A stretch of 64,000 bases of DNA from Clostridia bacterium (GCA_045611765.1 JAZKXT010000004.1:68883-132882), one strand, 5' to 3'. Counted from the stretch's first letter, positions 29,718 through 56,271 are shown. Numbers and translations: made by a program. The notes: generated from the sequence alone by a model not told the origin.

Positions 29718-29722
29718 TATAA

Positions 29723-31426: not shown

Positions 31427-31585
31427 ATTAACCTCCATATAATTGTTACCTGGTAATAATTATATTATAATATTGAGTATTTGTCAAATAAATTATAATT
31501 ATTTATAATTTATATTATTTGTAGTAAATATATAAAATAGACAAAAGAACACGATGTTTCTTTTGTCTACCTAATACTTAATATT

Positions 31586-32922: not shown

Positions 32923-35900
32923 TTAGTCAAAATCTGTTGCAGCTCTTGAGTCTAAGTCATATAACATTACTGTTCCTTTTACTTCATTGTATACTGTATC
33001 TGATGTTATATTCCATACGCCGCCTTCAAGTCTTAATGAAACATCGTTATTCGATGTTACAGCTTTTCCATAATTCGAATAACCCATAAATCCTTCATAA
33101 TCCCATTGACTTGTGTTTGCCTTTCCAGCTTGAGTATCTTTAGAATAAGATAAGTCTATTCCATTTGAGCTAGCTATTATATCAAAGACCACTCCTATGT
33201 AACCATTTGTTAATGGTTTATTTATATCATAGTTGCCATTCTTATCTACTTTTACCGCAATTGTTGAGTTAGGTAGTTTATATTCTCCATAATATGTTAT
33301 TACAGAATCGTTTGCATTTGGAGTCGCCATTTTATACGTTAACTCTATCGTTCTTAAGTGACCTATATTTATAGATGATTTAGAAAAATGATCTGTTACT
33401 TCATCTTGTATATATCTATATCCATCATTTGGTGTAAAGTTTATATTATAACCTCCACCATCATTGTCTATTCTTACATACTTGCCATTGCTTGCTTTAT
33501 AGAATAAATATATTCCTTCACTCTTATTAGAACTATCATATTCTTTCAAATATGTTTTTCCGTCTTTTGAAATATAGTAAAATCTTGTGTTTATCGTTAC
33601 TTGCTTTTCATTATTTGCTGAATCACCTTTATAATATGATCCAGTAACGTTCATATCAAAACTAAATCTATATCCCATCTTAGGAGCATTTATGTATGTA
33701 TTATCCGTATTTTTATATGGTCCTATAGGAAGTGTTCTAAGAGGATTTCTTCCGATTTCAGTAAGTGTCCTTGGTACTATTTCATTAGTTTGAGTTGATT
33801 CCTTCTTCCATTTTGTAATACCAGAATAATATACTGTCCCATTATGAACGTTTACTTTACTAGACGTATTAGTTCTAAATACACTCTTCCAGTTTACATC
33901 TTTTACATCTGTCACTTTAAATCCATATATCCTATTTAATATTAATATTTTATTTTGGTTTTGTTCTGCAAAATAACTTGGATGTTCACAGATGTTCTCT
34001 ACATCTTCTTTCATCTCATTGGCAAGTTCTTCTATCGCTTTATATCGTGTTGATTCACTTAACATTAATGATGTTGAATTATATGCCGTTGCTCTTACAT
34101 GATATTGAACCTCTCCTTCAGAAAGCGGAGATACATCTAGCTCATCCACTGCCCCGTATGCCTGCGCTGTAACTTTACCTATGCCACTTGCATTTCGCTT
34201 CACTCTTATCCACGTTCCAGCTATTACTTTTCCACCACCATTATATACTCTATCATTTATAAATACCTTGTGTACATCAAAATCAAATTTGATATAATAT
34301 GGAGAACTATAAGATGATGTTGCTCCATAGTCAGTTGTATCATTTAATCCATAAACATTATTCTTTGTCACATCACCAAATGTTAGTGTTTTTGACATGT
34401 TGTTAATTGTTATTGTAAATGGAACATTTGATTGAACTAGCCCGTTTCCTTCATTTTTTGTAGATTGGTCAACTATATTATTTGAAGTAGTTTCGAATGC
34501 AGAATTTACCGTTATTGGTGTATATATATTTATAGGATCAACATATTCATATCTAGGATTATCCACAGTAGGCTCATTATTTATTTGATATTTCTGTATT
34601 AAATTAGTGTGAGTCCTATAAAAACTTGAATCCTTATACTCATCAGATATAGATGGATAATATACTGTATCTTTAATTCCCGTAATATCCGAATAACCAA
34701 TTCCCATTAAATCTTTTAAAGTATATTTTACTTCTCCTGCTAAAACTCTAACTCCATTTAATATATTATAGTGAATATGTCCTCTGGCCTCTACATAGTC
34801 TTGCTCACCTATTCCCGTCTCATAATATTCTTTAGGTATTTTAATAGGGGTTGTTTTTACTTCTATTTTTCCTTCAGGATTATCTATATCTGTTAATAAT
34901 TCTGCTATTTTATATGTTTTCTCAACTTTATTGTTAGGCTGAGCACTATTTAAAAGTATATCATCGACTTGAACATCCATGTTTTGTACTCTCAATTTAA
35001 ATGTTATATCATAGGTCGAAGCCACATCGGCATTGTTATCTGTTTCTGATTGACCATACATAAACATATACTCATCATAACGTACCTTGCCTGTTGGATA
35101 ATTCTCAATCATCCACTCCCATTCTTCATTCCACTCCGAATATTGTGTAAGCGCCTCCCCTACTTCTTCGTTAAGAACAATATACTTAGCAATATTCACA
35201 AGGAAAGAAAGTTCTTTATCTATCTCTTTTTCTATATTTCCCAATGCAGTATCTATGTTTTTCATTTGGGAATATATAGCTGTAATCTGGGCATTTCTCT
35301 TCGAAACATAGTCATCAGTAGTTCCTGCACAGTAGCCTTGCCATGCGTAAATTAAATTGTCGTCATCCCAACATTTAGCTCCTTCGTGGCTATTAGCTGC
35401 ATTAACTTCGTTTGTTAACTTAGTTTTATAATTTAATATTGAACCTTCTTTACTCCAACTGTATATAACTCTACTATAACCATTAAGCGCCACTGCAACA
35501 GACTCCAATGAAAATTCTATACTCTTTGTTACACCATCAGGTTTAATAACTAGTTTGCTACCAGTAGAGTTATAATACGTTTTTATTGGATTATCGTATC
35601 CACCTAATTTATCGGCGCCTTTCATAAATGAAATATAACTATTTGTCTTATTAACAAGATATTGAGCTGTATCACGCGCTTCCTTCCACGTTGTATATGA
35701 TGTTCCTATATTCAAACTGTCATAACACTGACCAACATAAATATTCAGTCCACCAGCAAACCATTTCTTCTCACATTTCAAATTTTTAAATGAGTCTGTA
35801 ATATTATCATTTAACAATTTTCTAGTGTCACTAACTGCATTTTTTAATTCTGTTAATTTTTCTTTTATCTCAGCTTCATTGGCTAGTGCTTCTTCCCAAG

Positions 35901-38900
35901 AAATTTTAGTACTAATTTCTATCTCATCTTTTAGGTCTTCAAGTTCTTGTTTTTTTGCATCCCATAAATCCTTTGCCTTTTTACGTTCTAATCTAACGTA
36001 TTCTACATCATCTTTATTTATTACGCCATTACTATTAGCGTCTAACTTTTTAGCATCATATTCATAATTAATTGTATGGAATGATGAGTCTGCCCAATTA
36101 TATGACGAGATTTTAACAGAATAGCTATTATCTGCCTTATCCGGATCCGGATTTGCTCCATTCCAACTCCCCTCATTAACATATTTAGCGCTATATGTTC
36201 TGTCTGTATAATTGCTTTCAATATCTATAGTATTTTTAGTGATTTCTCTTCCTTCCAATCCTGTCATTAACAATGTAGGGGTCTTGAAAACCGTCAATGT
36301 TTTTTTATTTTTTTCCCAGTTATATAAACTACTACCAACTGTAACTGCATCTATTGCTCCAGCATCATATAACGTTGCTTTATTAATGCTATATGCAGAT
36401 ATTTCTGTTACTTTATCATAACCAATTACTGTTGGATGATTAAAAGAAAATTGTATATCTTCAGACACAGGCTCGCCGCCAGCAATTGGACGTGTTCCTG
36501 ATACTAATATATCGTATACTATAGGGGTTTCATTTGTTGTGTATTGTGTTGTAACCGCTCCTAAGATAGCACGTGGTAACTTACTAGTTCCCGATTTTAC
36601 TATTGATACTGTACTATCATGACCAGACGGCATCGAGTATGTAGAATAAGATGATTCTCCTTTATACGTATCATCATAACAAGTCGTATTCGGAGTAGTA
36701 GAATCTGATACATCTACTGTCACCTTACCACCAATTACAGGAGTAGGTTCTGTTTTAATCGTCTCATCCTTATAATAATAGAACCAAACTTCTCTAACAG
36801 ATGCGTAATCCTCATTCAACTTAACCTCTACACCATTAGTAGAATCTTTTTCGTTATTCGCAATTCTTGTAATGTCTGACCTTGATGTATATGCATCACT
36901 CCACCTTCCATCTGTCCCCTCAGACAAATCATAGCCTTTATATACTATTCCATTTTTTATTTCTACAGGCTTAACAACCAAGTGTTCATTTGTCTTCATA
37001 CTTATTGGATATACTTCTTTTGTAAATTGATCGTTATTCATTCTCTCTATATCAACTCTATACGTTGGAGTAATAATGTCCCACCAAGCAGATGGTCTTA
37101 TTTCTATTTGAGCTTTAGAATTAGGAACTATGCCTGTTTTATCCGATTCAGGTACTAAAGTAAAGTCTGTTACATCATCATCACCGTTATCCTTAATATA
37201 ACGGTGATATACTGTTACCTCACCAGCATAATCTGAATAATACAAGTCTATCATGTATACTTTATTCTCAGACATTAACATTTCCGAATCGTCTTCATAT
37301 TCGGCATCCCATAAACTTAATTCGGTTACTTCATCTGGGCCCCAATCTTCTGGTGACCATTTTTCATATTTTCCTTTACGTATTCTAAATTCAAGTTGCT
37401 TTAATGCAGTATCATAATCTAACGCTGCTACAATATTAAATCCTATTAAATTTGTTTCAGGATATTTAACATCTTTAATGCTTAATGGGAAATCATAATA
37501 TTTTACACCAGAATATATTTCTGTAAAAGTTCTTCCATTTTCTGTAACTGTACCTGTAGTGTCATTATCTGGTACTGAGTTTAATACATTTCTATCATAA
37601 TCTAAAATTTCACCTAATTTATCTTGCAATGTACCCGTTACTGTGTCACTACATCTATCTGTACAACCTTGCGTTTTGGCTTCATCTAACGCACCTAAAA
37701 TACCACCTACACACGTATTAATGCAACTATTTCTATCCCAACTCCAATCATTGTTGATAGCCATTACGCTATCATTATTAACTAACTCTGTAGATATAAC
37801 ATTGTTAGTTCCAAGGTCAATATGTCTTACATATATTTTAGCATCAGATAGTTGTGGGAATAACAATTCGTTATCATATAAGTTAGCAACAGAGCCTAAC
37901 GCTAGAGAATATTCTTGTGGTTCAGTTCCATACAAGCTAACACTCCAGAATTTATTAGTAGCTGTTACTTTATTTTTGTCATCAAAAAACTCTCTTACTG
38001 TTCTAGATGCTATATATTTATTATCATAATTTTTAGATATTAACACCTGCGATATCATACAACCGTCTTCTTGTTCAGCAACAACCGCTGCATCAACAAA
38101 ATCCCCAACTATATTAGATGGTAGCACGTGATCGTCTACTATTACATTTCCTATTGTTGTTCCGTTATAATTATCATCTAGGTGTATCATGGCGCTTCTA
38201 AATATTGTTTGTTGAGATTCTTTTTTGTTTACTTTAAATGTTCTTTTTTCTTCATTATCTATATATCCACCAATTCTAGATACTGTATAAAATACATTAT
38301 CTGGTTTATCTTGAAAGCGTGCAAAATCATATTTGCTTGTATAAGATGGATATGAATGGAATAAGTTAACTGTTAACGACCCCAGCTCATCTTCAGGATC
38401 ATAATCTGCCCAATCATATACCTCGTCGTTATTTACGTCATATTGCTTCAATGACGAACTTTCACCAACATCGGTATAGTTAAGAGTATTAAATCCAATA
38501 GCCCCAACCCCAACCTTGTCAGCTGAATCTTCAATTTTTGCATATTCACTTAAATAATAATCTTTATGAAATATATATTGTGCTGTTACAAAAGTATTTA
38601 CAGCGGGCAATGGTACTGATGTACTTTCAACAACCCACTTAGAATCATACATTTTTCCGCCATACTCATATTGATAATAGTCACCATTTTTATCTAATTC
38701 ACGAACTAGCATATATCCTGACTTCTTATGATATTTTTTTACCGTTCCTGAATATGGAGTTGTAAATGTTCTAAATATCAATTCGTATGCGTCATCACCA
38801 TCGATATCTGTTTTCCATAAGTGATTAATTAAACCAACTCCAAGCACTTGATTAATATTAAAGAAGATTACACATAAAAACATTATGCTACATATAGTTA

Positions 38901-38916
38901 TTATTTTAGTTTTCAT
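32923..38916 (-). CDS. giant secreted/surface protein (1997 aa), last gene of the Tad-like operon
   Basis: N-terminal signal/anchor (MKTKIITICSIMFLCVIFFNINQVLG). Central coiled-coil about residues 1010-1090. One dockerin/EF-hand-like Ca loop (DANSNGVINKDD). Thr/Tyr/Asn/Gly-rich beta-type composition. No LPXTG. Confidence 0.6.
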   Translation of the reverse strand: MKTKIITICSIMFLCVIFFNINQVLGVGLINHLWKTDIDGDDAYELIFRTFTTPYSGTVKKYHKKSGYMLVRELDKNGDYYQYEYGGKMYDSKWVVESTSVPLPAVNTFVTAQYIFHKDYYLSEYAKIEDSADKVGVGAIGFNTLNYTDVGESSSLKQYDVNNDEVYDWADYDPEDELGSLTVNLFHSYPSYTSKYDFARFQDKPDNVFYTVSRIGGYIDNEEKRTFKVNKKESQQTIFRSAMIHLDDNYNGTTIGNVIVDDHVLPSNIVGDFVDAAVVAEQEDGCMISQVLISKNYDNKYIASRTVREFFDDKNKVTATNKFWSVSLYGTEPQEYSLALGSVANLYDNELLFPQLSDAKIYVRHIDLGTNNVISTELVNNDSVMAINNDWSWDRNSCINTCVGGILGALDEAKTQGCTDRCSDTVTGTLQDKLGEILDYDRNVLNSVPDNDTTGTVTENGRTFTEIYSGVKYYDFPLSIKDVKYPETNLIGFNIVAALDYDTALKQLEFRIRKGKYEKWSPEDWGPDEVTELSLWDAEYEDDSEMLMSENKVYMIDLYYSDYAGEVTVYHRYIKDNGDDDVTDFTLVPESDKTGIVPNSKAQIEIRPSAWWDIITPTYRVDIERMNNDQFTKEVYPISMKTNEHLVVKPVEIKNGIVYKGYDLSEGTDGRWSDAYTSRSDITRIANNEKDSTNGVEVKLNEDYASVREVWFYYYKDETIKTEPTPVIGGKVTVDVSDSTTPNTTCYDDTYKGESSYSTYSMPSGHDSTVSIVKSGTSKLPRAILGAVTTQYTTNETPIVYDILVSGTRPIAGGEPVSEDIQFSFNHPTVIGYDKVTEISAYSINKATLYDAGAIDAVTVGSSLYNWEKNKKTLTVFKTPTLLMTGLEGREITKNTIDIESNYTDRTYSAKYVNEGSWNGANPDPDKADNSYSVKISSYNWADSSFHTINYEYDAKKLDANSNGVINKDDVEYVRLERKKAKDLWDAKKQELEDLKDEIEISTKISWEEALANEAEIKEKLTELKNAVSDTRKLLNDNITDSFKNLKCEKKWFAGGLNIYVGQCYDSLNIGTSYTTWKEARDTAQYLVNKTNSYISFMKGADKLGGYDNPIKTYYNSTGSKLVIKPDGVTKSIEFSLESVAVALNGYSRVIYSWSKEGSILNYKTKLTNEVNAANSHEGAKCWDDDNLIYAWQGYCAGTTDDYVSKRNAQITAIYSQMKNIDTALGNIEKEIDKELSFLVNIAKYIVLNEEVGEALTQYSEWNEEWEWMIENYPTGKVRYDEYMFMYGQSETDNNADVASTYDITFKLRVQNMDVQVDDILLNSAQPNNKVEKTYKIAELLTDIDNPEGKIEVKTTPIKIPKEYYETGIGEQDYVEARGHIHYNILNGVRVLAGEVKYTLKDLMGIGYSDITGIKDTVYYPSISDEYKDSSFYRTHTNLIQKYQINNEPTVDNPRYEYVDPINIYTPITVNSAFETTSNNIVDQSTKNEGNGLVQSNVPFTITINNMSKTLTFGDVTKNNVYGLNDTTDYGATSSYSSPYYIKFDFDVHKVFINDRVYNGGGKVIAGTWIRVKRNASGIGKVTAQAYGAVDELDVSPLSEGEVQYHVRATAYNSTSLMLSESTRYKAIEELANEMKEDVENICEHPSYFAEQNQNKILILNRIYGFKVTDVKDVNWKSVFRTNTSSKVNVHNGTVYYSGITKWKKESTQTNEIVPRTLTEIGRNPLRTLPIGPYKNTDNTYINAPKMGYRFSFDMNVTGSYYKGDSANNEKQVTINTRFYYISKDGKTYLKEYDSSNKSEGIYLFYKASNGKYVRIDNDGGGYNINFTPNDGYRYIQDEVTDHFSKSSINIGHLRTIELTYKMATPNANDSVITYYGEYKLPNSTIAVKVDKNGNYDINKPLTNGYIGVVFDIIASSNGIDLSYSKDTQAGKANTSQWDYEGFMGYSNYGKAVTSNNDVSLRLEGGVWNITSDTVYNEVKGTVMLYDLDSRAATDFD

Positions 38917-41431: not shown

Positions 41432-44400
41432 TTAATTGACTACAAATGTTCTACTTACTTCTTCTACATTGCCAGCTATATCATATGTTCTTATAGTAGC
41501 TGTCATTGTTCCTTTTTCGGTAATTGTTTTTGTTATACTGCCACCTGCATTACTTATACTTCCAGATATCACATGTGTGCCATCAGATTTAACAAGTTCA
41601 TATGTACATCTATCGAATCCACTTAAATTATCTGAACCTGCTATAAACTCCATTTTCACTTGTCCCGAGTATACATGCGTATACCAATCCATTGTATAAA
41701 TATCATTAAACTTCATGTTCGTACCAGTCGGAGCAGTTTTGTCTAGTTTAATTGTTTTTTCTTCCAATACTGAATTGCCATTTGAATCCTTAGTCGTTAT
41801 TGTGACTTTTGTTCCGCTAGTATTAGAAGTTATTTCATTACGAGACAAAGTAACCATAACCTCTCCACTATTGTCACTTCCACCTGTATACGATAAAGCA
41901 ACATTTTGATTATACCATTTACCCTCCTCGTAAGACTGGCCGTTTACAAGTAATGTTGCAGGCATTGGTGGTAGTTTGTCTATCACTGTCGTACCTATAT
42001 TTCCTGCTTTATCCTCAAGGGCAATTGTTAACTCATATTTGCCATCACTAGGTAACGTTACATCGCTAGACGTTCCACTGCTTATCCCACTACTAGTTTC
42101 TAATTGCCATCTTCTAGCTTTAAAACCAGAACCATACTCTGTATAATCTAAATATCTTTTCTGACCAGCAACTGATGTGACTAAAGCTGGTGGTGTAGTA
42201 TCTACTTTTATAGACCTTGTCTCAGATGTGCTTGACTTTCCAGCTTGTGTATACGTAGTTGCGTATAACGTATATTGTCCATCGGCTAAGTCTTTTTCTT
42301 TAACGAATGTAGTAAACTTTTCACCAACTCCATTTACATATAAATATCCATATGAATACCCTGATGCTGCGCTTCCTGTATCAACAGTTATTTTCACTTT
42401 TGGTTTAGTAATATACCAACCTTCATTGCCTAATCCACCTTCTATTATCTCTAGAGTGGCTGGTTTCGGATTGGATTTATCAAATTTTAGTTCTCTCGTA
42501 CTTTCGCTATAGTTTCCAGCCTTATCATATGTTCTGGCTATAATTTTATACTCTCCGGGCTCCGTTAAAGTTACGGATGTCGGATTAAAGCTATTATAGT
42601 TAACACCTTCATTTTGAACTGGTCCTTCTATTTCATATGTAGTTTTCCAAAATCCACTTGTTGTATCTGAACCATTGGAAATTTTTATAGTAATACTAGG
42701 AGCTATAGCAGTATCATATGCTAAATACCAGCCTGTACTTCCATAATAATAGCCAGATACATTTACAGCAATAGTTGGTGAAGTTGGCGCGTTCTTGTCT
42801 ATTTTTACCTCAAGTGCAACTTTGTCACTTTCATTTCCAACATAATCTTCTGCATAACCTCGCACCGTTCTTGTACCATTCCATGATACAGGATATGTGG
42901 TTACATCATATAAAGAATCGTATAAAGTTAAAGCGTTTTGGATTTGTAAAACGTTACGCCATACACCACTTCCACCTTTATCCGCTGTAGAAGGCGCTAG
43001 ACTTATCGTTACATCAGACCTGTACCACGTTACATCGTCTACTGTGTTGCTAACCCCTTCGGCAACCAAACTAGGTGGAAAAGGCTTTTTATCATCTTCA
43101 AGTACTTTGTACCCATTGCTTTTAGCTCCAGCCAATGCAAGTAATACAGTATCTGAATGTGGATTATTATCTATAATTGTTCCTTCTTCTTCTATGTAGA
43201 TATCATTTAATAATTCGCGTTCTATTTCTTTTTGCGCCCAACCTTCCTCTAATTGAAAGTAATTATTATTGCTAGTTCCAGTGTGTGCGAATTTTACCAA
43301 AACGCGTTCCGCATATTGTGACAGAATATCTACTCTATACTCACCCATATATAACTCTTCATCTGTCCAACTCTCAACAGTCAAATTATTTACATTCTTT
43401 AATGTATCAGAATTCTTTATAGCCTTTTCTATTTTCTCTTTAATAGCTTCTTGATTAGTTGTACCTAGTCTTGGAAAAGATATTATAAAACAAATTTCTT
43501 GGTCTTCAGTCGCTTTTATATAATTATCCACCCAACTGTCATTAACATAAGCTGTATTGTCTACCATTCTAGACTCGGCTAAATTATTAGTTTTTACTAG
43601 CTTCTTCCAATTATATGGCCCTAAAATAGTAGTATGATTTCCCGAATTCTCATCAAATAATTCTATTGCAACCGTTTCTGCCGCAAGAGATGCTATGCCG
43701 TTTTTGTCCTCTCCCAATCCTGGTAATACTGTAACAGTTGCATCTGCAGCTATATAGTCTAAAACTGACATATGCACATTAGTAAGTTTTATTTCTAATT
43801 GATAGTAATCTTCCACGGATATAAAATTCAAAGCAATATTAGCATACATTCCATTTAATTTTATGTAATTACTTATTATATGATTTGCTATATCACTACT
43901 CCATACTAAATCTTTTATAGGAGTATAAACATTTCCTGTATCTATCTTATCAAAATTTCTTAATTCAGCTAGAATTGTTATTTCTGTATTATTTGAATCT
44001 GACAAGTCATATTGATATACATATTGTCTTTCTTCAACTTTTTCACACAATTCTGCAAGTTCCGAATCTATATCTACATCATCACAATTTAACTCGTCAA
44101 CAAAGCTCGATTCTGTTATCACAGATTCTTTTTGTATGTTAGTTTCTCCTTTTTTGTTAACAGGAACTGTTAATATAACTTCCGGAACTATGTCTTGAGA
44201 TGCTTGTATTTTATTATATAATTCCCAGTTTACATTATTAATGGCCCCACCATAGCTTATATTTACTATTTTACTGTTTGACGATTCTGAAAAAGAATCA
44301 CGTAAAATACTCGCTATGGTTTTGTTTGTGTTATATACTTTAACATATATCTCGTCGTTTTTCTTTAATAAATATACTCCGTCTTTTATATTTGTTTCAT

Positions 44401-44776
44401 TTGCACTAATCTTATTAGTTTGCTTATCTTCCCATACATCAAATATGTCTTGAGTATTATATAATATTTTTTGTTCACCGTATGTTTTAACATTGCCATC
44501 GGAATCTCTTTCCTCTGGAACAAGAATACTTCTATATGCCTCTATAGACACATTATATATATTGCCTGTGGACGCTATAGCATTCATATAGTCTGTATAT
44601 GATTGTTCATCTATAAATCCATTGGTCCTAACCTTATCCACAAAATTAGTAGTGGCAGTTAAAACAATGTTATATGCCATGTTATCTTGTCTATCTGCCA
44701 AACTGTATAATGGAAATATAACTACAAAAAATGTTCCTATAATAGTTGCAATTATAATGCTTATAGTATCTTTCAT
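41432..44776 (-). CDS. large pseudopilin-like protein (1114 aa): pilin-type N-terminal helix + six C-terminal about 90-aa beta-sandwich repeats each ending in a D-x-A-G-N motif
   Basis: N-terminus MKDTISIIIATIIGTFFVVIFPLY... is homologous to that of the 405-aa protein. Repeats: EDYVGNESD, YDKAGNYSE, YTQAGKSST, EDKAGNIGT, DSNGNSVLE, YDIAGNVEE. Confidence 0.55.
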   Translation of the reverse strand: MKDTISIIIATIIGTFFVVIFPLYSLADRQDNMAYNIVLTATTNFVDKVRTNGFIDEQSYTDYMNAIASTGNIYNVSIEAYRSILVPEERDSDGNVKTYGEQKILYNTQDIFDVWEDKQTNKISANETNIKDGVYLLKKNDEIYVKVYNTNKTIASILRDSFSESSNSKIVNISYGGAINNVNWELYNKIQASQDIVPEVILTVPVNKKGETNIQKESVITESSFVDELNCDDVDIDSELAELCEKVEERQYVYQYDLSDSNNTEITILAELRNFDKIDTGNVYTPIKDLVWSSDIANHIISNYIKLNGMYANIALNFISVEDYYQLEIKLTNVHMSVLDYIAADATVTVLPGLGEDKNGIASLAAETVAIELFDENSGNHTTILGPYNWKKLVKTNNLAESRMVDNTAYVNDSWVDNYIKATEDQEICFIISFPRLGTTNQEAIKEKIEKAIKNSDTLKNVNNLTVESWTDEELYMGEYRVDILSQYAERVLVKFAHTGTSNNNYFQLEEGWAQKEIERELLNDIYIEEEGTIIDNNPHSDTVLLALAGAKSNGYKVLEDDKKPFPPSLVAEGVSNTVDDVTWYRSDVTISLAPSTADKGGSGVWRNVLQIQNALTLYDSLYDVTTYPVSWNGTRTVRGYAEDYVGNESDKVALEVKIDKNAPTSPTIAVNVSGYYYGSTGWYLAYDTAIAPSITIKISNGSDTTSGFWKTTYEIEGPVQNEGVNYNSFNPTSVTLTEPGEYKIIARTYDKAGNYSESTRELKFDKSNPKPATLEIIEGGLGNEGWYITKPKVKITVDTGSAASGYSYGYLYVNGVGEKFTTFVKEKDLADGQYTLYATTYTQAGKSSTSETRSIKVDTTPPALVTSVAGQKRYLDYTEYGSGFKARRWQLETSSGISSGTSSDVTLPSDGKYELTIALEDKAGNIGTTVIDKLPPMPATLLVNGQSYEEGKWYNQNVALSYTGGSDNSGEVMVTLSRNEITSNTSGTKVTITTKDSNGNSVLEEKTIKLDKTAPTGTNMKFNDIYTMDWYTHVYSGQVKMEFIAGSDNLSGFDRCTYELVKSDGTHVISGSISNAGGSITKTITEKGTMTATIRTYDIAGNVEEVSRTFVVN

Positions 44777-44882
44777 TAATATCTTCTACCTTTCTTATGG
44801 CTCTATATATTCTATAAATATGAATTTCCCGTTATTATACTGCATTTCATATTTCTTACTATTATTTAAGCTCGTCCAGGTG

Positions 44883-45146
44883 TCATGAAGTATTGCACCG
44901 TTGTAAAAAAATATTATCTCCCGACTTGCTTCCATAATGTCTTATCTCTGGCCCTGTATATAATCGTTCATGGTCTTCGCCAATACTTTCTGCAAGTGTA
45001 CCATTCATCCCAACAATATACGGTTCATTCATAATTTCAACCATGTCTAGAATACTGGTCATAAGAGTAACACCTGCACTTAAAGCTATAGCAAATATAA
45101 ATACATAAATTCCTATCATTATTGCTTCACTTGCTGATTGCTCCAT
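44883..45146 (-). CDS. small pilin-like protein (87 aa)
   Basis: MEQSASEAIMIGIYVFIFAIALSAGVTLM: short polar leader then a hydrophobic helix. RBS GAGGGGGAAAG. Confidence 0.45.
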   Translation of the reverse strand: MEQSASEAIMIGIYVFIFAIALSAGVTLMTSILDMVEIMNEPYIVGMNGTLAESIGEDHERLYTGPEIRHYGSKSGDNIFLQRCNTS

Positions 45147-45147
45147 A

Positions 45148-45597
45148 TTATTTTCTTTCCCCCTCTAGCTCATAACGAATTATTATATCGCCGTTATATT
45201 CATATACTTTTACGTCATATTTATTTTCATAACTGAATAATTCTCCTTGAAATTTTTTATTTCCTTCCATTAATTCTTGGAGTTTTTGTGATGGTCTCTG
45301 TCCGTTTGCCTCTGCCACTGATTCAATATTATCTCTTTTAAAATATTCTACCACTATATTTTGATCAGTATATTCGTATTTTTTTACAACATTAAGTAGA
45401 CCGACACCTGTATCTTTTCTCCCATCATACATTGCGTAAATATTATCAAACTGACTATATATATCCGTATCTGTTTCATCAACAAAACCAAATATTTCTT
45501 TCATTTGACTAAACATAGCAAAAAGCGCTGTTGCAATCGACACTGTAATAAACAAACTAACAGCTATAATTACCACTTTAGTTGACAACGCATCCAC
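45148..45597 (-). CDS. pseudopilin-like protein (149 aa), GTG start
   Basis: MDALSTKVVIIAVSLFITVSIATALFAMF N-terminal helix. RBS AGGTGGTG. Confidence 0.45.
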   Translation of the reverse strand: MDALSTKVVIIAVSLFITVSIATALFAMFSQMKEIFGFVDETDTDIYSQFDNIYAMYDGRKDTGVGLLNVVKKYEYTDQNIVVEYFKRDNIESVAEANGQRPSQKLQELMEGNKKFQGELFSYENKYDVKVYEYNGDIIIRYELEGERK

Positions 45598-45621
45598 TTA
45601 ATTCACCACCTATCCTATTAA

Positions 45622-46839
45622 TTAGTATGACCACACTCCAACTATTTGCCTTCTTCCATCAAATTTTTTACTAGCCTCATCCATCTCATCATACTTTCCA
45701 GCGTTATATGTCTGTGTAGTCAAATACCCAAACTTAGGAACACTTTCTAATTTTATACTTTCTTCCACTTTTTTATCATTAATATATAAATTAACTATAC
45801 ATTCTTTATCCTGTACTTTATCTACTGCAATTTCTATTTTAGTATCTGCCATTATATCTGTTGGATAAGATAAAATTGTAGTATTTTCAACAAGAATTGA
45901 AACTCCATTCAAGCCAACACTTACAAGCATGTCACCGGTATTGACAAAGTTGTACATTAATTGTATATCTCCTGTATTTAATACCCCTTTTGCTCTTAAT
46001 TCTGTTACCGTTTTTGGCGTAACTTTCAAAGCAACTTTATAATCATCGGTCGGATTTATAATATTCAAGTTTGAAGTGCTATGTTTCATTGCTTTTAATC
46101 CCACAACACTACTTGTAATGCTACCATAATCTACTTCGCCTATCCATTTACTAGCTAAAATTCTTCCGCCATAATTTACATATAGTCTAGTATTTGTATC
46201 TATAGCGTTTGCTGTTATAGAGTTATATAAAATTGTTGCCAATGTAGTATTAGTATTACGTATAGTTACATTAAAGTTGTCTCCTTCATTTAACAAATAT
46301 GCATAATGTTCTGTTCCATTAGATAGATTTAATTTTTTTTCATTTTCTAAAATATTTACAATATGCTCTGTTGTATATACTTGCTTAGATACCCTATATG
46401 TATCTTCAGACATAAAATCTGTTGGAATTTTCCCAAGTTTACCTGCTAAAAATTTATCCTGTTCATCCTTTTCTAACCCCATTTTATCTTCTGCAGATAA
46501 CCACTCTTCTTTTTGTTCTTGTGTTGTTGTTGCGACTAGTTCATACTTTCCATCCTTTTTTATATAATAATTGGTTATAGGATCATACCTTGTATATTCA
46601 TGTGTAAGTTCTATATCATACGAATTGCCTGTAAGGCGAAGTCTTCTTTCGTAATCACTATACATGTCCCTTGTTATATATCCCTTATTTCTTACTTCAT
46701 CTACAAAATCTTGTGTGTACCTCATAGCAAGTATATATGATATATCGTCTTTCTTTTCATATGCCATATATACAGGGAATATGAAAAGAAGAACTATGGA
46801 TATTATAACAATAACAATTGTTTGTAAACTGTCTTCCAC
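45622..46839 (-). CDS. pseudopilin-like protein (405 aa) sharing an N-terminal module with the 1114-aa protein
   Basis: MEDSLQTIVIVIISIVLLFIFPVYMAYEKKDDISYILAMRYTQDFVDEVRNKGYI matches MKDTISIIIATIIGTFFVVIFPLYSLADRQDNMAYNIVLTATTNFVDKVRTNGFI. Confidence 0.5.
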   Translation of the reverse strand: MEDSLQTIVIVIISIVLLFIFPVYMAYEKKDDISYILAMRYTQDFVDEVRNKGYITRDMYSDYERRLRLTGNSYDIELTHEYTRYDPITNYYIKKDGKYELVATTTQEQKEEWLSAEDKMGLEKDEQDKFLAGKLGKIPTDFMSEDTYRVSKQVYTTEHIVNILENEKKLNLSNGTEHYAYLLNEGDNFNVTIRNTNTTLATILYNSITANAIDTNTRLYVNYGGRILASKWIGEVDYGSITSSVVGLKAMKHSTSNLNIINPTDDYKVALKVTPKTVTELRAKGVLNTGDIQLMYNFVNTGDMLVSVGLNGVSILVENTTILSYPTDIMADTKIEIAVDKVQDKECIVNLYINDKKVEESIKLESVPKFGYLTTQTYNAGKYDEMDEASKKFDGRRQIVGVWSY

Positions 46840-46851
46840 TTGTTATCCCCC

Positions 46852-47259
46852 TTAATAATCAATTATCTTATCTGGAGAAGAAATATACAATATCTCTCCT
46901 TCTTTTGTCACTGTATAGTTCCAAATTGGATTTATTTTATCTAGCATTTCTTCCTTAATATTGCCTGTACTATATCGCCAACTCCCACCTAATGTAGTGC
47001 CATTAAACCTTATTGATACGCTATCATCTGTTATATATTTAGTTATTAACGAACGCACATCTACCCCTGTTAAAGTCGTCGCATCTAAATCTTCCTTTTT
47101 CATTATTTCATCATATTCTGAAGCTATATCTGTCCTATGCCCCACTTGTTCAGCAACATCTATTGCTTTACCATAATATATTGTCATGGCGGATATAACC
47201 CCCATTATTATAAAAACTGAAACACTTATAAAAATAATCCTTACTGACCACTCTTCCAT
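46852..47259 (-). CDS. pseudopilin-like protein (about 135 aa)
   Basis: Start at the second ATG (AAGGGGA RBS). MEEWSVRIIFISVSVFIIMGVISAM N-terminal helix. Confidence 0.45.
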   Translation of the reverse strand: MEEWSVRIIFISVSVFIIMGVISAMTIYYGKAIDVAEQVGHRTDIASEYDEIMKKEDLDATTLTGVDVRSLITKYITDDSVSIRFNGTTLGGSWRYSTGNIKEEMLDKINPIWNYTVTKEGEILYISSPDKIIDY

Positions 47260-47360
47260 AATGTTCCCCTTTCTAATTAACAAATATAAAAAGAATTGAT
47301 TATACCGTGTTTAATTTCTTCTTATATTTATTAATTTCAATATAAATTAACATATCTTAA

Positions 47361-47391
47361 AATAGCCTTAAAAAGGCATACAACATAATTA
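47361..47391 (-). terminator. attenuator-type hairpin (AAAAGGCATA-N11-TATGCCTTTT) immediately 3' of the candidate major subunit gene
   Basis: 10-bp perfect stem seen directly, in the 133-bp gap inside the operon. Confidence 0.45.
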
Positions 47392-47416: not shown

Positions 47417-47863
47417 TTATATAGCTTTTTTGAAATATAAGCCTATAACATTTCCATTCGTATCAAGAATAACAGCAGAAGTATACCTTTCACTCTTAAT
47501 AGCAGCTAGAGCATCGGTTAAATTAGGTGTGGCTGCATTCTTAGTAGAAGAAACAAGACCACCTGCTTTTGGACTACCTGTTACTGTTAGTGCATATTTA
47601 CCATAGTTGGTACTATCTATAAGAATTCCCATGCTTTTTATGTATTTTCTAACAGCTGTTCCTACAGAAGTTGCGCTTAATGTTTTTCCGTCATATACAT
47701 TGTATAATTCGTTTTTTAAATCTCCTGTTATGCCAGAAATTTGTCCACCAGCTTCATCCATCATTCCAGTACCTAAGTTTACTATTAATAGTACTGCAGA
47801 TATGATTATGATTGTAATGAAAAGTCCAACACCAATCATAATCGCTTTTTCTGTATTATCCAT
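47417..47863 (-). CDS. candidate major filament subunit (148 aa) with archaeal/Tad-type class-III-like N-terminus
   Basis: MDNTEKAIMIGVGLFITIIIISAVLLIV. Strongest RBS in the operon (AAAGGAGGT). Preceded by a 110-bp gap and followed by a hairpin, the usual arrangement for a highly expressed major pilin. Confidence 0.45.
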   Translation of the reverse strand: MDNTEKAIMIGVGLFITIIIISAVLLIVNLGTGMMDEAGGQISGITGDLKNELYNVYDGKTLSATSVGTAVRKYIKSMGILIDSTNYGKYALTVTGSPKAGGLVSSTKNAATPNLTDALAAIKSERYTSAVILDTNGNVIGLYFKKAI

Positions 47864-47972: not shown

Positions 47973-50069
47973 TTACATGTTCAATACTGACATTTGTGAT
48001 ACGAGTTGCATTATGCTCACAAGTAGTAATGGACCAACAAAGTATGCCGCTACCAATATTATTAAAGGAGTAAATCCAATTGCATTTCCCATAGTAGATT
48101 TTTTGTTTATTATTCTTTCGTTTGTTTCTTTCCTTTTTTCATATTGGAAACTTCTCTCTGTTTCTAGTTCATCAAAGGCTTCTCTTATTGGTATTCTTTC
48201 TACCGCCGAAATTAACGCTTCTACTATACGCTGGAAGTCTTTTTGTGGAACTGAATCCTTTAAGTCCTCTAAAGCTTCAATTGCACCTGCTTCATAGTTG
48301 TTTAAAGCTGTAGAAATCGGCTCTTTATATGCGTATGAATATCTTTCAAGCCATTCTAATACCGTTTGTACATCAACTCTTTCAATATACATAAGCATTA
48401 GTATTATTGACCTAAACTGCATTATTTCGTCTTCTCTTTCCAAAGCCCTTATTTTATTTTTAATAATTAAAACAATATTTGGTATGAAATATACTCCCCA
48501 TGCAACGAGCAGCGCTATTATCATTTCCCAAAATTTCATGAAATTATCTTTGACGCCTTCTATTTTCCCAAGAACTCTTTCAACATCACTATCCAAAACC
48601 TTTTGTTCCTCTTCAGCTCCCGATGCGCCCATTTGTTTTTCTAGTTCATATCTTACATCTTCTTCTGTAACATTTTTTTCGTTCTTTAGCTTGTCTACAA
48701 TTTCCTTGTCGCTTTTATTTAACGCTTCTGCCGCTTGTCTGTCTTCGTCAGATAGGGCTCCAAGGCTTAAGAATTCTTCGCTAATTTCATTATATATACT
48801 ATTTAAATCTATCGCATGTATATTTATTAACAAAACAAACATGGCTACAAAAGCTATAATCGCATACGTAAACTTATTAATGTAGAACCACTGCAGAGTT
48901 AAATATGAGTTTGTCGACTTAATTCTTTCAGTAAGTCTTTTATGTTTCCTCGTATGCTCGCTTGGCATGAAACCTCTTATTACAAATTTAACAAGTGGAA
49001 ATTTGTAAAGCTTATCTTGCCATTTTTCAGTTACAATTCTATCGAATTTTATTTCGTTAGAATCTTCTCTTATTAGTTTTAAGGCAAAGTATGCTACAAA
49101 TATTGATACCATTATTAGTGTACGGATTACAAATCCAATACTGCTTGAATAGAAATTTATAAGTGCTGGGAAGTTTGTTGATGCCCAGTTTTCTACAATT
49201 TGTAGGAAGAATATTGGTGCTATAGCTATTGCTGTCAAACTTCTAAATTTATAATTTATTTTGTCTTTTTTTAGTAGCTCCAAATATACATCGTTTAGTA
49301 TATTGTTTAAGTTTTTTAAGTATACTGACACTCCCTCTACTTTTCTATCTCCAAGTTCCATTGTAAGATAGGATACACCAGCAAAAAGTTTTAAAAATTT
49401 ATTTGGTGCCGTATCATAATATTTCTCAAGCATTACGTCAGGATTATCTGATGTTATAGCATCTCTAATTCTTCTTATTTGAGGCATTATTTCTTTGTCC
49501 TCAAGCTCTTCTATAGCATCATTAAATGCTTCTTCTATCATACCATGCTCATGGAATGAGTGTCTTATTTCTGTAAAAACTTCCGGTAATTGTGTCATTA
49601 TCTTATCTGCTACTTTATTAACCCTAGAGTTAACCATAACATCATTTATTATGAACACCATAAGTATTACAACAATTGCCGTATATAAATCCGAAACTAC
49701 ATTTAAGAAGACAAACAGCGCTGCAAATATAAATAATAAAGATAGTAACATTATCGAGCCTGTTTTTCTTCTTATTTCATACTCGGTATAATCATTTACC
49801 ATTTCTAGTTTAAGTCTTGTCTTTCTAGTATAGTATTTTATAACTGGTAGTTTTACCAATATTAAATATGCTACTTGAAATACTCTATCCAAAATATCCT
49901 TAATACTTGTTTTATTCTTTACAACTATTTGATCTTTTTGAAATAGCTTTGAATTACTTGCATATTTTTTCTTTGTTACATTATAGTATATTATAACAGC
50001 AAGTAAGCCTAAAAAGGCAATTCCAACCATGCCAATTATAATATACAGAGTTCCATTACCCGCTGCCAT
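47973..50069 (-). CDS. GspF/TadB/TadC-family inner-membrane platform protein, apparently two fused T2SSF-like modules (698 aa)
   Basis: Two repeats of a TM helix, cytoplasmic helical domain, then TM helices. Adjacent to the secretion ATPase. Confidence 0.5.
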   Translation of the reverse strand: MAAGNGTLYIIIGMVGIAFLGLLAVIIYYNVTKKKYASNSKLFQKDQIVVKNKTSIKDILDRVFQVAYLILVKLPVIKYYTRKTRLKLEMVNDYTEYEIRRKTGSIMLLSLLFIFAALFVFLNVVSDLYTAIVVILMVFIINDVMVNSRVNKVADKIMTQLPEVFTEIRHSFHEHGMIEEAFNDAIEELEDKEIMPQIRRIRDAITSDNPDVMLEKYYDTAPNKFLKLFAGVSYLTMELGDRKVEGVSVYLKNLNNILNDVYLELLKKDKINYKFRSLTAIAIAPIFFLQIVENWASTNFPALINFYSSSIGFVIRTLIMVSIFVAYFALKLIREDSNEIKFDRIVTEKWQDKLYKFPLVKFVIRGFMPSEHTRKHKRLTERIKSTNSYLTLQWFYINKFTYAIIAFVAMFVLLINIHAIDLNSIYNEISEEFLSLGALSDEDRQAAEALNKSDKEIVDKLKNEKNVTEEDVRYELEKQMGASGAEEEQKVLDSDVERVLGKIEGVKDNFMKFWEMIIALLVAWGVYFIPNIVLIIKNKIRALEREDEIMQFRSIILMLMYIERVDVQTVLEWLERYSYAYKEPISTALNNYEAGAIEALEDLKDSVPQKDFQRIVEALISAVERIPIREAFDELETERSFQYEKRKETNERIINKKSTMGNAIGFTPLIILVAAYFVGPLLLVSIMQLVSQMSVLNM

Positions 50070-52004: not shown

Positions 52005-52811
52005 CTATATTCTTACGCGGTCTAAAACCGCTTTTGTTATATTTCTTATTTCATGAATAAAATATCCATTATAGTCATTTTTTTCAGCATTTAAGTTTTT
52101 ATAAAAGAAATCAATTACATTTCCATCATTACATGCATCTGTAAACACGTAGTTATGTGGTATGCAATGTATTGGCTCTTTTATTCCATACTTTCTGCGA
52201 ATATTTGGGATATTATATTTAGATTTTTCCTCATAATTACACATTAAAAGCATTTTAGGTTTATTCTTTATAATCTCATTTGAAAGATATTTATCCATTG
52301 CTTCCTCTAAAAAGACTTCTTCTTGATTCATAGTACAAATTACATAGTCTGCCTTTTCCAACTCATCTGTTATATATGATTTTTCAGTACCCTTAGGTAA
52401 ATCTAACCAAACCAAATCATATGTTTCATTTGCTTTATTTACAACCATTCCTAAACTGTTGGTAAGTTGGCTAAATTGTTCTCTACTTGCAACATTTGTA
52501 CCATACATTACATCAAGTCTTTGTTTTAAAACTGGTTTTGCATAGTTTCTTATACTTTCAGGAGTAAGTTTATTACTCTCAACAAGTCTTGCTAAAGCTG
52601 TAATACCAATACTTGAACTATTGAACACATTCTGTGCTTTTAAAGAACTGTAATCTGTAAATGAGCTTTCAATTTTTTTAGCTTGCCAATGTGCGTGTAG
52701 AAGTATATTAGAATAATCTTCTTCAATCGCCATCAAAGTACTAACAGCTACACTTGCATGCGTTTGTCCTATAGAAGTAGCTACCGGGCTCCAAAATACT
52801 ATCTTTGGCAT
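52005..52811 (-). CDS. MinD/ParA-fold protein with degenerate P-loop (TadZ/CpaE-like pseudo-ATPase?)
   Basis: KIVFWSPVATSIGQTHASVAVSTLMA aligns to the deviant Walker A xKGGxGKT[T/S], but with GQT replacing GKT. Confidence 0.4.
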   Translation of the reverse strand: MPKIVFWSPVATSIGQTHASVAVSTLMAIEEDYSNILLHAHWQAKKIESSFTDYSSLKAQNVFNSSSIGITALARLVESNKLTPESIRNYAKPVLKQRLDVMYGTNVASREQFSQLTNSLGMVVNKANETYDLVWLDLPKGTEKSYITDELEKADYVICTMNQEEVFLEEAMDKYLSNEIIKNKPKMLLMCNYEEKSKYNIPNIRRKYGIKEPIHCIPHNYVFTDACNDGNVIDFFYKNLNAEKNDYNGYFIHEIRNITKAVLDRVRI

Positions 52812-53536
52812 TACAATTTCCCCCTTGTATACATTTTTATCATTTTTCTAATTTCCCCCGCTTGTACATCACCTAATATTTCTGACGCCATGTCTGTTAT
52901 AAGCGAAATATATTGTTTTGTGTGTCTGTTCATGTCTATATAACCACTTTGCTCAAATTCTATATCAGCAATTTTATCTTGATCTGTATATGCAAATTCA
53001 TATTCTGTCTCATTCCAATCAACAGGAAGACTTAGTATTTTACTTTCAAAATATTTTTCACTAGCTCTTGTTACATATTGTCTAAATAATACACGCGTAA
53101 GAACCGGCTTCCTTTCTACCGCTTCATATTTTAACATAGTGTTTAATAGTTCTTCATTCTTAGCTATAGATATGTTTAGATATTCTATAAAGAAGAATGT
53201 TTTTGCAAAATTCTCTTGTATAAAGTCCTCATATGATTGTACATTGTCTATGTCTATTAATATAATATCATATGTGTCTGCGTTTGATGTTTTTGTACAT
53301 ATGTATTCTTTTATTGCTTCTATACTTCTAAATCCTAGAGCATAATCCACAGAATCAAAATGTACTAAATATTCTTCTTCCGAATTATTGAAGGCTGGTA
53401 TAGAATATCTTAGACGTTCTTCCGATGTTGCATCAATAACTAAAACAGATTTCCCAGTTATAGTTAATACTTTAGCCAAATTAATTATATATTCGGTTTT
53501 ATTTACATATCCTACCAAACCTATTATCTTTTGCAT
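52811..53536 (-). CDS. MinD/ParA-fold (TadZ/CpaE-like) protein with deviant Walker A VGYVNKTEY
   Basis: IIGLVGYVNKTEYIINLAKVLTITGKSVLVID resembles the MinD N-terminus. Overlaps the downstream paralog by 1 nt. Confidence 0.4.
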   Translation of the reverse strand: MQKIIGLVGYVNKTEYIINLAKVLTITGKSVLVIDATSEERLRYSIPAFNNSEEEYLVHFDSVDYALGFRSIEAIKEYICTKTSNADTYDIILIDIDNVQSYEDFIQENFAKTFFFIEYLNISIAKNEELLNTMLKYEAVERKPVLTRVLFRQYVTRASEKYFESKILSLPVDWNETEYEFAYTDQDKIADIEFEQSGYIDMNRHTKQYISLITDMASEILGDVQAGEIRKMIKMYTRGKL

Positions 53537-53550
53537 TTGTTCCTCCTATT

Positions 53551-54660
53551 TTAATAATCTAAAGCCTCTCCTCTTAAAGCTTGTTGATTGCTAATTGAAT
53601 CTGTAATTCCAGAAACAACGTTATCATAAGCCTCTTCATTGCTTTGTTCAAATGAAGCTATGCTGCTTTCAATATTACGTCTTGCTTCTGCATTAAGTTT
53701 ACCTTTCGCTTGCTCTACTATATATTGATTTTGTCTCATAAATGCCATTACTTGAGAGTTTGGTTGGTAATTAGCTTTCGTTTTGTTATATGATTCAACA
53801 AAGTATCTATATTCAATAGCATATTGTGTTACTATGTCTAATAAACTTTGTCTAGCAGTAGATACTCCCACAGTTTCTTTTTGGCCATTTGCATCAACAT
53901 TTCCAGTTTCTCTGTTTTCTACCATATAAATGTCATCCATGTCATCAAATTTTGCAAGTTCTTTACCAATTTCATCTCTTAAATATAATTGTGCTTGTCT
54001 CACCGCTTCATCTGTAGTATTTAATTTTATTTGCGTTGTAGGGTCAGTATATTTTACCGCATACAATTTTGTTCCCTCTGTTAAATACGAATCTACTATA
54101 GCACTGTTTAACATTAATGTATCTTCTTCTGACATGTCCATCCAAATTGATGTTCCAGATATTTTCGATACTTGTTTTTGTGTAAGTACAATATAGTCAG
54201 CTCCATTTGGATACATTATTCTTATATCTATAAAATCATTTACAACAAGATCTGTAGGTAATAGCACCGCGTTAATTTCTTGTATTCTCATATCTTGAGA
54301 TACTATCTTATCTCCAACCATACTAGAAACAGCAACCGAATTCCTCACTATGTTATATTTTGCCACTTGACCTACAACAGCTCCCGTTGATAAATACGCA
54401 TTATTTGGAACTGTGTTTTTGTGTATAGTTGTTGTAGTAAGCATATCTGCTGTTATAGTTTCTCCTTGAACAACATCTCTAGTAAAGGTTACTACGTCAG
54501 CTGTATATTTTTCCAAGAAGCTTTTACTTGTTCCTTCTTTATATCCTTTTACAATGTTATTAGATATTAGTATTGTAACAAGAACAAATACCAATCCTAT
54601 TCCAAGTCCTATTAAAATTCCATTAATCAATCTCTTCTTTATTTGATTCATTCCTATCAT
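53551..54660 (-). CDS. CpaB/RcpC-like pilus assembly protein (membrane anchor + SAF-type beta domain), first gene of the operon
   Basis: Start at ATG 54660 (GGAGG RBS 9 nt upstream). TM LINGILIGLGIGLVFVLVTILI, then a periplasmic-type domain. Confidence 0.45.
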   Translation of the reverse strand: MIGMNQIKKRLINGILIGLGIGLVFVLVTILISNNIVKGYKEGTSKSFLEKYTADVVTFTRDVVQGETITADMLTTTTIHKNTVPNNAYLSTGAVVGQVAKYNIVRNSVAVSSMVGDKIVSQDMRIQEINAVLLPTDLVVNDFIDIRIMYPNGADYIVLTQKQVSKISGTSIWMDMSEEDTLMLNSAIVDSYLTEGTKLYAVKYTDPTTQIKLNTTDEAVRQAQLYLRDEIGKELAKFDDMDDIYMVENRETGNVDANGQKETVGVSTARQSLLDIVTQYAIEYRYFVESYNKTKANYQPNSQVMAFMRQNQYIVEQAKGKLNAEARRNIESSIASFEQSNEEAYDNVVSGITDSISNQQALRGEALDY

Positions 54661-54688
54661 ATGTATAAACCTCCATAATACTGTCAAA

Positions 54689-56095: not shown

Positions 56096-56271
56096 AGTTT
56101 TCCTCCTTAACCTTGTTACAATATATGGGCTAAATGCATGTTTTATGATTATTTTGATGCTACTAAATAAACCCAACGAGGAGCCTTAATATCCCCGCCC
56201 GCCACTCACGGTATACGCATCATTAACTTCCTTATGATATTCGTGTAAAAGGCTTTTTAAGCATAGAAAAT

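Follow-up and report, generated by a model that had tools for sequence, protein, structure and literature searches.

The window analyzed here, a stretch of 64,000 nucleotides from a Clostridia bacterium assembly (GCA_045611765.1 JAZKXT010000004.1:68883-132882), carries a long minus-strand gene array that includes two open reading frames (ORFs) encoding proteins of 405 and 1114 amino acids (aa). A sequence-only reading of this DNA had described the pair as sharing a pilin-like N-terminal module, and both ORFs are present on the minus strand as described (Table 1). In the order of transcription, the array encodes a 378-aa SAF-domain protein, a 241-aa ParA/MinD-like protein, a 268-aa protein, a 630-aa ATPase and a 698-aa polytopic membrane protein, continues 3′ of the 698-aa gene with proteins of 148, 143, 405, 149, 87, 1114 and 354 aa, and ends with a 450-aa membrane protein followed by a 1997-aa protein with a classical signal peptide. 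Each of the seven proteins encoded between the 698-aa and 450-aa genes begins with a polar leader of 5–9 residues and a hydrophobic stretch of ~21 residues.

The N-termini of the 405-aa and 1114-aa proteins are significantly similar (BLASTP E 2e-13) and align without gaps over residues 1–78, with 26 of 78 positions identical. With the hydrophobic helix left out, residues 28–78 retain 17 identities in 51 positions and score 106 in BLOSUM62, against a maximum of 35 in 100,000 shuffles, and a hidden Markov model (HMM) built from one paralog family detects the other paralog at 1e-32 to 1e-44. The motif FVDxVRxxGxIxxxxYxxYxxxxxxTGNxY, proposed from the sequence alone, begins at residue 45 in both proteins, with the spacing of the preceding Tyr and Thr corrected from four intervening residues to six (Y35 to T42). 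The shared region also extends beyond the ~75 residues first suggested and forms a bipartite module of ~185–235 residues, in which a second conserved block, Y.(M/L)N.GD.F.V.(I/V)(K/R)N.N.T.A..(I/L)(Y/F)N.......R(I/L).VNYGG, follows a variable insert and ends in (V/I)NYGG (residues 132–186 of the 1114-aa protein and 178–233 of the 405-aa protein). Invariant or nearly invariant positions of the module include Pro22, the charged cluster E-(K/R)-(K/Q)-D-D at residues 28–32, Gly53, TGNxY at residues 70–74 and the NYGG block. The module matches no Pfam or NCBIfam family.

We used AlphaFold to model the 405-aa protein (92 sequences; mean predicted local distance difference test score (pLDDT) 85) and residues 1–200 of the 1114-aa protein (106 sequences; pLDDT 89.4, predicted template modelling score 0.81), and the two independent models agree on a 51-residue N-terminal helix spanning residues 2–52 and followed by beta strands. 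In the 405-aa model the continuous helix leads into a head of mixed alpha/beta composition, with the C-terminal beta-sandwich set apart, and in the 1114-aa module it is followed by a short strand and helix, a long hairpin (residues 74–90 and 96–106) and further strands and helices. Type IV pilins characteristically have this shape, a helix of ~50 residues that is hydrophobic in its first half and leads into a sheet, and the models place both an α1 helix of this length and an antiparallel beta-sheet head in the module. Foldseek comparison of the module with the Protein Data Bank (PDB) returned nothing below E 0.1, so the predicted fold appears pilin-like in outline and without a close solved relative. 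A bitopic alignment protein of the PilN/PilO/GspL/GspM type was considered and rejected, as no ferredoxin-like periplasmic domain follows the transmembrane helix and a coiled coil. Beyond the module, the 405-aa protein's C-terminal domain is modelled as a lectin-type jelly roll resembling laminin G (LamG) and pentraxin domains, and relatives of the protein carry Pfam Laminin_G_3 at the position of this jelly roll.

The 1114-aa protein continues from its module into a middle region (residues 191–560) that has no Pfam match and is kept only in the closest relatives, and then into six tandem repeats bounded by D(K/T)xxP linkers. The repeats had been put at about 90 aa each, which holds roughly, with an actual span of 70–107 aa, and the D-x-A-G-N motif said to terminate every one is found in four of six as (D/E)x(A/V)GN and is degenerate in the other two (TQAGK or DSNGN). 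Pairwise identity among repeats is 22–33%. Scanned whole, the 1114-aa protein exceeds the curated cut-offs of three immunoglobulin (Ig)-like families, namely Pfam Big_13 (51.8 bits against 27), Pfam Big_3_2 (30.2 against 23.3) and the NCBIfam OmpL47-type model (NF047446; 54.7 against 40). Scanned singly, repeats 2, 3, 4 and 6 match Big_13 or Big_3_2 and only repeat 3 passes a cut-off alone, while repeats 1 and 5 are linked only through internal BLAST matches to repeat 2 (E 2e-4 and 3e-3). Because the family models and the internal similarity point the same way, the six units are best described as predicted divergent Ig-like domains and not as low-complexity sequence, as the sequence-only reading had supposed and as repeat alignment, internal BLAST and family models bear out. 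Only the closest relatives share the six-repeat architecture.

The module defines a large and modular protein family. An exhaustive phmmer search with residues 1–250 of the 1114-aa protein retrieved 687 cluster representatives (50% clustering), 219 of them at E ≤ 1e-10; among the 150 matches listed, the module match begins at residue 1 in nearly all, and single-match members are between 74 aa (fragments) and 1387 aa long. For the 405-aa protein, a set of 5.8 billion proteins contains 140 homologues, none of them named and none with a Pfam domain on the module. The sequence-only reading had the module fused to differing ectodomains, and the relatives bear this out with a wide range of extracellular domains: C-terminal partners include Laminin_G_3, dockerin, Big_12, FGE-sulfatase, ALK/LTK glycine-rich, Flg_new, SH3_3, Big_13 and a sialidase N-terminal domain, and many other C-terminal additions match no family. 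The grafted domains thus come from families not specific to pili, as in modular pilins. In one 2581-aa repeat protein (P0135), module residues 78–146 are matched 22 times, which suggests that the beta-hairpin region of the module can occur as a repeat.

An ATPase-based scan of species-representative genomes identified at least 271 related loci, of which 80 were fetched for examination. All 80 derive from uncultured Clostridia-type metagenome-assembled genomes (MAGs; titles Clostridia, Clostridiaceae, Eubacteriales or Bacillota), including Clostridium sp. CAG:465 and CAG:1219, and many of them were recovered from animal or human gut samples, the hosts being sheep, deer, buffalo, rabbit, chicken and human (Hadza). 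The operon gene order, collinear with that of the window, is kept in these 80 loci. Both paralogs occur in the same order with two small pilin-like genes between them in 52 of the 73 loci with enough sequence, whereas a more distant clade (ATPase ~61% identical) has a single copy of 164–178 aa that consists of the module alone. These two patterns indicate that the duplication, already noticed from the sequence, is ancient, that both separately kept copies are core parts of the system, and that the ancestor was of ordinary pilin size. A-type paralogs (the 405-aa family) measure 223–654 aa, plus one of 1497 aa (L064:16663-21156), and B-type paralogs (the 1114-aa family) 166–1273 aa, so the unusually large scale first remarked on is real for the 1114-aa protein and confined to one sub-clade. 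In the closest relatives, the 1114-aa orthologue is 30–36% identical over its full length, compared with 88–94% for the ATPase, a fast divergence of the pattern expected of an exposed surface protein. Literature searches found no description of the operon or the module.

The genes upstream of the two paralogs resemble the machinery of Tad (type IVc) pili. The only PDB matches of the 630-aa ATPase are to the Tad pilus motor CpaF (phmmer, E 2.6e-7 to 4.2e-7), and it also gives sub-threshold matches to T2SSE and a TadA-family model. The 241-aa protein matches ParA/MinD-like AAA_31 (2.8e-4) and CbiA, both below curated cut-offs, and has no PDB sequence match, and the 268-aa protein matches no family and shows a degenerate P-loop at its N-terminus by eye only. 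The three marks of a Tad operon are therefore found as a CpaB-like SAF protein, a ParA-like protein in the TadZ/CpaE position (its match below cut-off) and a CpaF/TadA-like ATPase, a combination that, judged by these matches, is the Tad gene set. The ATPase starts with a hydrophobic helix, MSLSFIFNTILIIVMFALVVAGIYYA, followed by ~240 residues without a family match, and its CpaF-like region begins near residue 270; the helix is a feature kept in 81 loci at 60–94% identity. Type IV filament ATPases are normally soluble. In the 698-aa protein, a C-terminal block, NNYEAGAxEALxxL...RIVxxLxSAVERIPIxxAFDELExER, recalls the T2SSF motif by eye only.

Small pilin-like genes surround the two paralogs. 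The 148-aa candidate major subunit has 636 homologues, none annotated, and the small neighbours share an N-terminal consensus, MDNAQKAIMIGVGLFIT, unlike that of the two paralogs. This common N-terminus, M-(D/E)-N-A-x-K-A-(I/L)-M-I-G-V-G-(L/I)-F-(I/V)-T, is found in the 148-, 143- and 149-aa proteins and in a related locus (L078:14479-15446), and by eye it recalls the archaeal class III arrangement of (K/R)(G/A) followed by a hydrophobic segment more nearly than bacterial G/FxxxE or Flp G/XXXXEY. Scans of 48 small pilin-like proteins gave only marginal matches too weak to use, to a His1 virus capsid family in 7 of 48 (best E 0.0097), and a profile of these proteins gave equally unusable marginal matches to Ig constant domains (E 0.01 or weaker). 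The idea that all seven short-leader proteins form one family was tried and is unsupported, because hhalign comparison of the module profile with the 354-aa neighbour detected no homology and that with the small pilin-like family was not significant. The 354-aa gene is kept directly downstream of the B-type paralog. The 87-aa protein aligns only to the first 71–75 residues of 133–144-aa orthologues in the closest relatives, and because the 106-bp gap to the next gene cannot encode the remainder, the gene is C-terminally truncated here. Just downstream of the 148-aa gene lies a weak terminator-like hairpin (47365-47377, minus strand; 5-bp stem, T-rich tail) that would fit attenuation behind a major subunit gene; terminator-like sites in the region overall are no more frequent than in shuffled sequence.

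Table 1. Features of the pilus-like gene array, with positions counted from the first nucleotide of the window
Feature	Coordinates	Strand	Basis or remark
1114-aa protein (B-type paralog): N-module, 370-aa region, six Ig-like repeats	41432..44776	-	ORF call; family matches
N-module of 1114-aa protein, residues 1-190: 6-7-residue polar leader, predicted hydrophobic helix to residue 52, predicted beta-sheet head	44207..44776	-	
Middle region of 1114-aa protein, residues 191-560	43097..44206	-	No family match
Six tandem predicted Ig-like repeats, residues 561-1114	41435..43096	-	Repeat alignment; internal BLAST; Big_13, Big_3_2 and OmpL47-type matches
Repeat 1, residues 561-664	42785..43096	-	
Repeat 2, residues 665-771	42464..42784	-	
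Repeat 3, residues 772-863	42188..42463	-	
Repeat 4, residues 864-933	41978..42187	-	
Repeat 5, residues 934-1014	41735..41977	-	
Repeat 6, residues 1015-1114	41435..41734	-	
405-aa protein (A-type paralog): N-module, C-terminal LamG/pentraxin-like beta-sandwich (predicted)	45622..46839	-	ORF call
N-module of 405-aa protein, residues 1-235, variable insert ~88-175	46135..46839	-	Alignments; model
C-terminal predicted jelly-roll (lectin-like) domain of 405-aa protein, residues ~257-405	45625..46071	-	Model; Laminin_G_3 in relatives
148-aa candidate major subunit	47417..47863	-	Orthologue N-terminal consensus MDNAQKAIMIGVGLFITIIII
143-aa pilin-like protein	46852..47283	-	Likely true start is an internal ATG at 47259
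149-aa pilin-like protein	45148..45597	-	Between both paralogs
87-aa pilin-like protein	44883..45146	-	C-terminally truncated relative to 133-144-aa orthologues
354-aa protein, short leader and hydrophobic helix	40293..41357	-	Orthologue consensus MKITDFALIFIaIiLP
630-aa ATPase with N-terminal transmembrane helix	50079..51971	-	
698-aa polytopic membrane protein in platform (TadB/TadC) position, putative role	47973..50069	-	Eight hydrophobic segments
241-aa and 268-aa proteins in TadZ/CpaE position	52005..53536	-	241-aa, 52811-53536; 268-aa, 52005-52811
378-aa SAF-domain protein in CpaB/RcpC position	53551..54687	-	Pfam SAF 1.5e-7, above curated cut-off

On balance, and with modest confidence, we read the 405-aa and 1114-aa proteins as modular minor-pilin-like adhesins located at the tip of, or decorating, a highly divergent Tad-like (type IVc-like) filament encoded in uncultured Clostridia MAGs, many of them from gut samples. 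The N-module (~165–235 residues) would be the assembly part, the hydrophobic first half of its helix lying in the membrane until assembly and then in the filament core, and the variable C-termini would be the functional parts displayed outside the cell wall, so that the 405-aa protein would present its lectin-type jelly roll and the 1114-aa protein its 370-residue region and six Ig-like domains. Both paralogs and the 149-aa, 87-aa and 354-aa proteins would form an initiation or tip complex, beneath which the CpaF-like ATPase would work with the 698-aa membrane protein to polymerise subunits of the 148-aa type. Display on a fibre is favoured because a single dockerin, SH3 or LamG domain attached directly to the module, as in many relatives, would sit under the Gram-positive wall if held at the membrane, and a tip or decorating-adhesin role is plausible. 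The label "pseudopilin-type" given in the sequence-only reading is borne out in part: it agrees with the predicted helix and sheet head and with the Tad-like operon context, and it finds no counterpart in pilin HMMs, the leader motif or a nearby peptidase.

Several observations weigh against a filament. AlphaFold draws a long N-terminal helix for any bitopic protein with a stalk. Pfam and NCBIfam models for N_methyl (PF07963, TIGR02532, IPR012902), TadE, Tad_N and Flp match neither paralog at E ≤ 0.1, no pilin HMM matches any of 85 module-family members at E ≤ 1e-4, and at E 0.1–1 the N_methyl, TadE, Tad_N, Flp and archaeal class III models match none of the seven short-leader proteins or their relatives. 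The leader consensus sequences of the paralogs in orthologue alignments, MEDnLQR and MKDNLS, contain neither Gly or Ala at −1 nor Glu at +5 and show no G/XXXXEY, and there is no Glu in the hydrophobic helix. The 405-aa protein, like most of the small pilin-like proteins, has an acidic and not a basic leader. Neither the 64-kb window nor the sequence up to 10 kb from the ATPase in 81 loci contains the A24 peptidase motif GxGDxK, and the 698-aa protein shows no T2SSF (GspF/PilC/TadB/TadC) similarity, whether scanned alone, together with 31 orthologues or, against the PDB, as a profile. When the module profile is aligned with that of the small pilin-like family, only the hydrophobic helix aligns. 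The window also holds no polytopic ORF that is a prepilin peptidase candidate; a 180-aa five-helix ORF (63444-63986) was considered as a TadV-like peptidase but has none of the Asp motifs and was rejected. This ORF is like SpoIIM by eye, with no support from family searches.

The missing leader motif, the missing peptidase and the charged cluster are equally well explained if the module is instead the signal-anchor and membrane-proximal domain of static bitopic proteins, either accessories of the machine or membrane-anchored surface proteins, that do not polymerise and whose C-terminal domains would extend into or through the wall; this is the main rival to the filament reading, and we regard it as possible but rather unlikely. 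The invariant E-(K/R)-(K/Q)-D-D at the end of the hydrophobic segment would fit a fixed membrane interface, the similarity of the fold to pilins is weak, and a stalk that spans the wall could be provided by the six Ig-like repeats. Single small domains such as dockerin, LamG or SH3 mounted on a membrane-held module, however, could not reach their ligands, the stand-alone module is the size of a pilin, the two genes alternate with small pilin-like genes as in a minor-pilin cluster, and the C-termini are hypervariable between close species, all of which argue against static proteins.

A different view, which we entertain only tentatively and consider doubtful, is that the operon represents a type IV filament branch that has not been classified and is seen to date only in uncultured Clostridia MAGs, many from gut samples, with non-canonical and often acidic leaders, a membrane-anchored ATPase and the module as an adaptor. 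The platform protein would then be unrecognisable by sequence, and the N-module would be a new pilin-type fold family that mounts lectin, dockerin, SH3, glycine-rich and Ig modules. Given the non-canonical leaders and the lack of a peptidase alongside, assembly may proceed without cleavage.

It is very improbable that the N-terminus is an ordinary Sec signal peptide and that both proteins are released or wall-bound adhesins whose shared region is just a conserved N-terminal domain. A hydrophobic N-terminus followed by extracellular-type domains in both proteins would suit such secretion, but the n-region is acidic or neutral (MEDSLQ and MKDTIS), the hydrophobic stretch is long at ~21 residues and contains the invariant Pro22, and no AxA-type cleavage site is present, features that make a Sec-secreted adhesin unlikely. 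The hydrophobic stretch also runs unbroken into the confidently predicted 51-residue helix, Pfam and NCBIfam scans found no LPXTG or other wall-anchoring motif, and the 1997-aa protein of the same operon, in contrast, has a classical positively charged signal peptide. That the N-terminal similarity is a chance or compositional match of two hydrophobic helices, inflated by the hydrophobic first 27 residues of both proteins, and the repeats merely low-complexity has a negligible probability, and chance is excluded for the N-termini by the shuffle, BLASTP and cross-paralog HMM scores of the aligned sequences, as is low complexity contradicted by the three Ig-like family cut-offs that the repeats exceed.

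The array lies among chromosomal genes of a spore-former, and Pfam matches in the flanks include a PBP5-type carboxypeptidase, an ABC-F protein, an AI-2E transporter and acyl-CoA synthetases; flanking ORFs also resemble SpoIIE, SpoVA and SpoIIM by eye, without confirmation by family search. The PBP5-type D-Ala-D-Ala carboxypeptidase gene (54812-56176, minus strand) is directly upstream of the operon both in the window and in a related locus (L001, 855-2069), and a similarly placed ORF in another locus (L023:4320-5096) is PBP5-like by eye. This adjacency may reflect a connection with wall remodelling or synteny alone. In the window, the PBP5-type and SAF genes are set apart by a terminator-like hairpin of 20 pairs (54796-54754) and by a promoter-like site (54717-54689). 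At the other end, the 1997-aa protein encoded by the last gene of the array (32923-38916, minus strand) has no Pfam domain, and only its C-terminal ~535 residues are kept, at 33% identity, in the 926-aa protein that L001 encodes at this position; the 1997-aa protein may act as a substrate or partner, or as another adhesin. Downstream of the array, beyond the AI-2E family transporter gene, is a tandem pair of AMP-binding (acyl-CoA synthetase-like) paralogs of 575 and 571 aa (27990-31438, minus strand). Elsewhere in the window, a 201-aa ORF very rich in Met, His, Pro and Cys (12404-13009, minus strand; MEFDRNYMGYNHMVMPMPMNNCIEPCQAECLKW...) has no Pfam match at E 0.001.

If the filament reading holds, uncultured gut Clostridia of a widespread group make a pilus that escapes current pilin and Tad models, with the operon present in at least 271 species-level genomes, and the tip subunits swap binding modules such as lectin-like, dockerin and SH3 domains and Ig arrays quickly between species, which would make these genes candidate determinants of gut attachment, whether to host, mucus or fibre. 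The modular pilin principle would then also cover a family without a canonical prepilin motif, which raises the question of whether prepilin peptidase processing is dispensable here. The N-module, with its 687 cluster representatives and no Pfam or NCBIfam model, could be defined as a new family.

The closest parallels are found among modular type IV pilins and Tad tip complexes. In modular pilins, a functional module is grafted on a pilin module; more than 1,200 have been catalogued, with LamG among the common grafts and the largest at 860 residues (PMC8179133), and Streptococcus sanguinis PilB and PilC carry a vWA module and a concanavalin-like lectin module, respectively (Raynaud et al. 2021, PMC8179133; PMC9934059). 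The proteins described here likewise combine a small N-terminal pilin-type module with a grafted one, and LamG (PF13385) is common in both sets, but their N-module lacks the IPR012902/N_methyl motif that defines that catalogue, their operon is Tad-like and not type IVa, and the family reaches 1114–1387 residues. In Tad tip complexes, a large TadG/KilN-type subunit with a variable distal domain has been proposed as the pilus tip (PMC12075869). As with TadE/TadF/TadG and Myxococcus KilL/M/N, several pilin-like genes here adjoin a CpaF-type ATPase (PMC12075869), the large subunit has a variable C-terminal domain, and paralogous sets have different distal domains; unlike in those systems, there is no match to PF07811 (TadE) or PF13400 (Tad_N), no G/XXXXEY or G/XXXXE(Y/F) TadV site and no vWA domain, each locus has two large paralogs and not one TadG, and the host is a monoderm spore-former. 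GspK and the CofB/TcpB-type tip pseudopilins offer a further likeness as large minor subunits with extra domains, no Glu5 and a presumed position as fibre cap, although the extra domain of GspK is inserted in the pilin sheet, whereas the additions here are mainly C-terminal, with a variable insert also present inside the module. The Ig-like repeats themselves are ordinary: they share the D-x-A-G-N last-strand motif and VD(K/T)xxP linker of Big_13 (PF19077), Big_3_2 (PF12245) and OmpL47-type (NF047446) domains, and differ in being carried on a pilin-like N-module instead of an enzyme, an S-layer protein or an LPXTG-anchored protein. The design principle is thus already known from modular pilins and from Tad tip complexes with a large variable subunit, and what is new is an unannotated N-terminal family, a Tad-like operon missed by the standard pilin, platform and peptidase signatures, a membrane-anchored CpaF-like ATPase and the size of some members.

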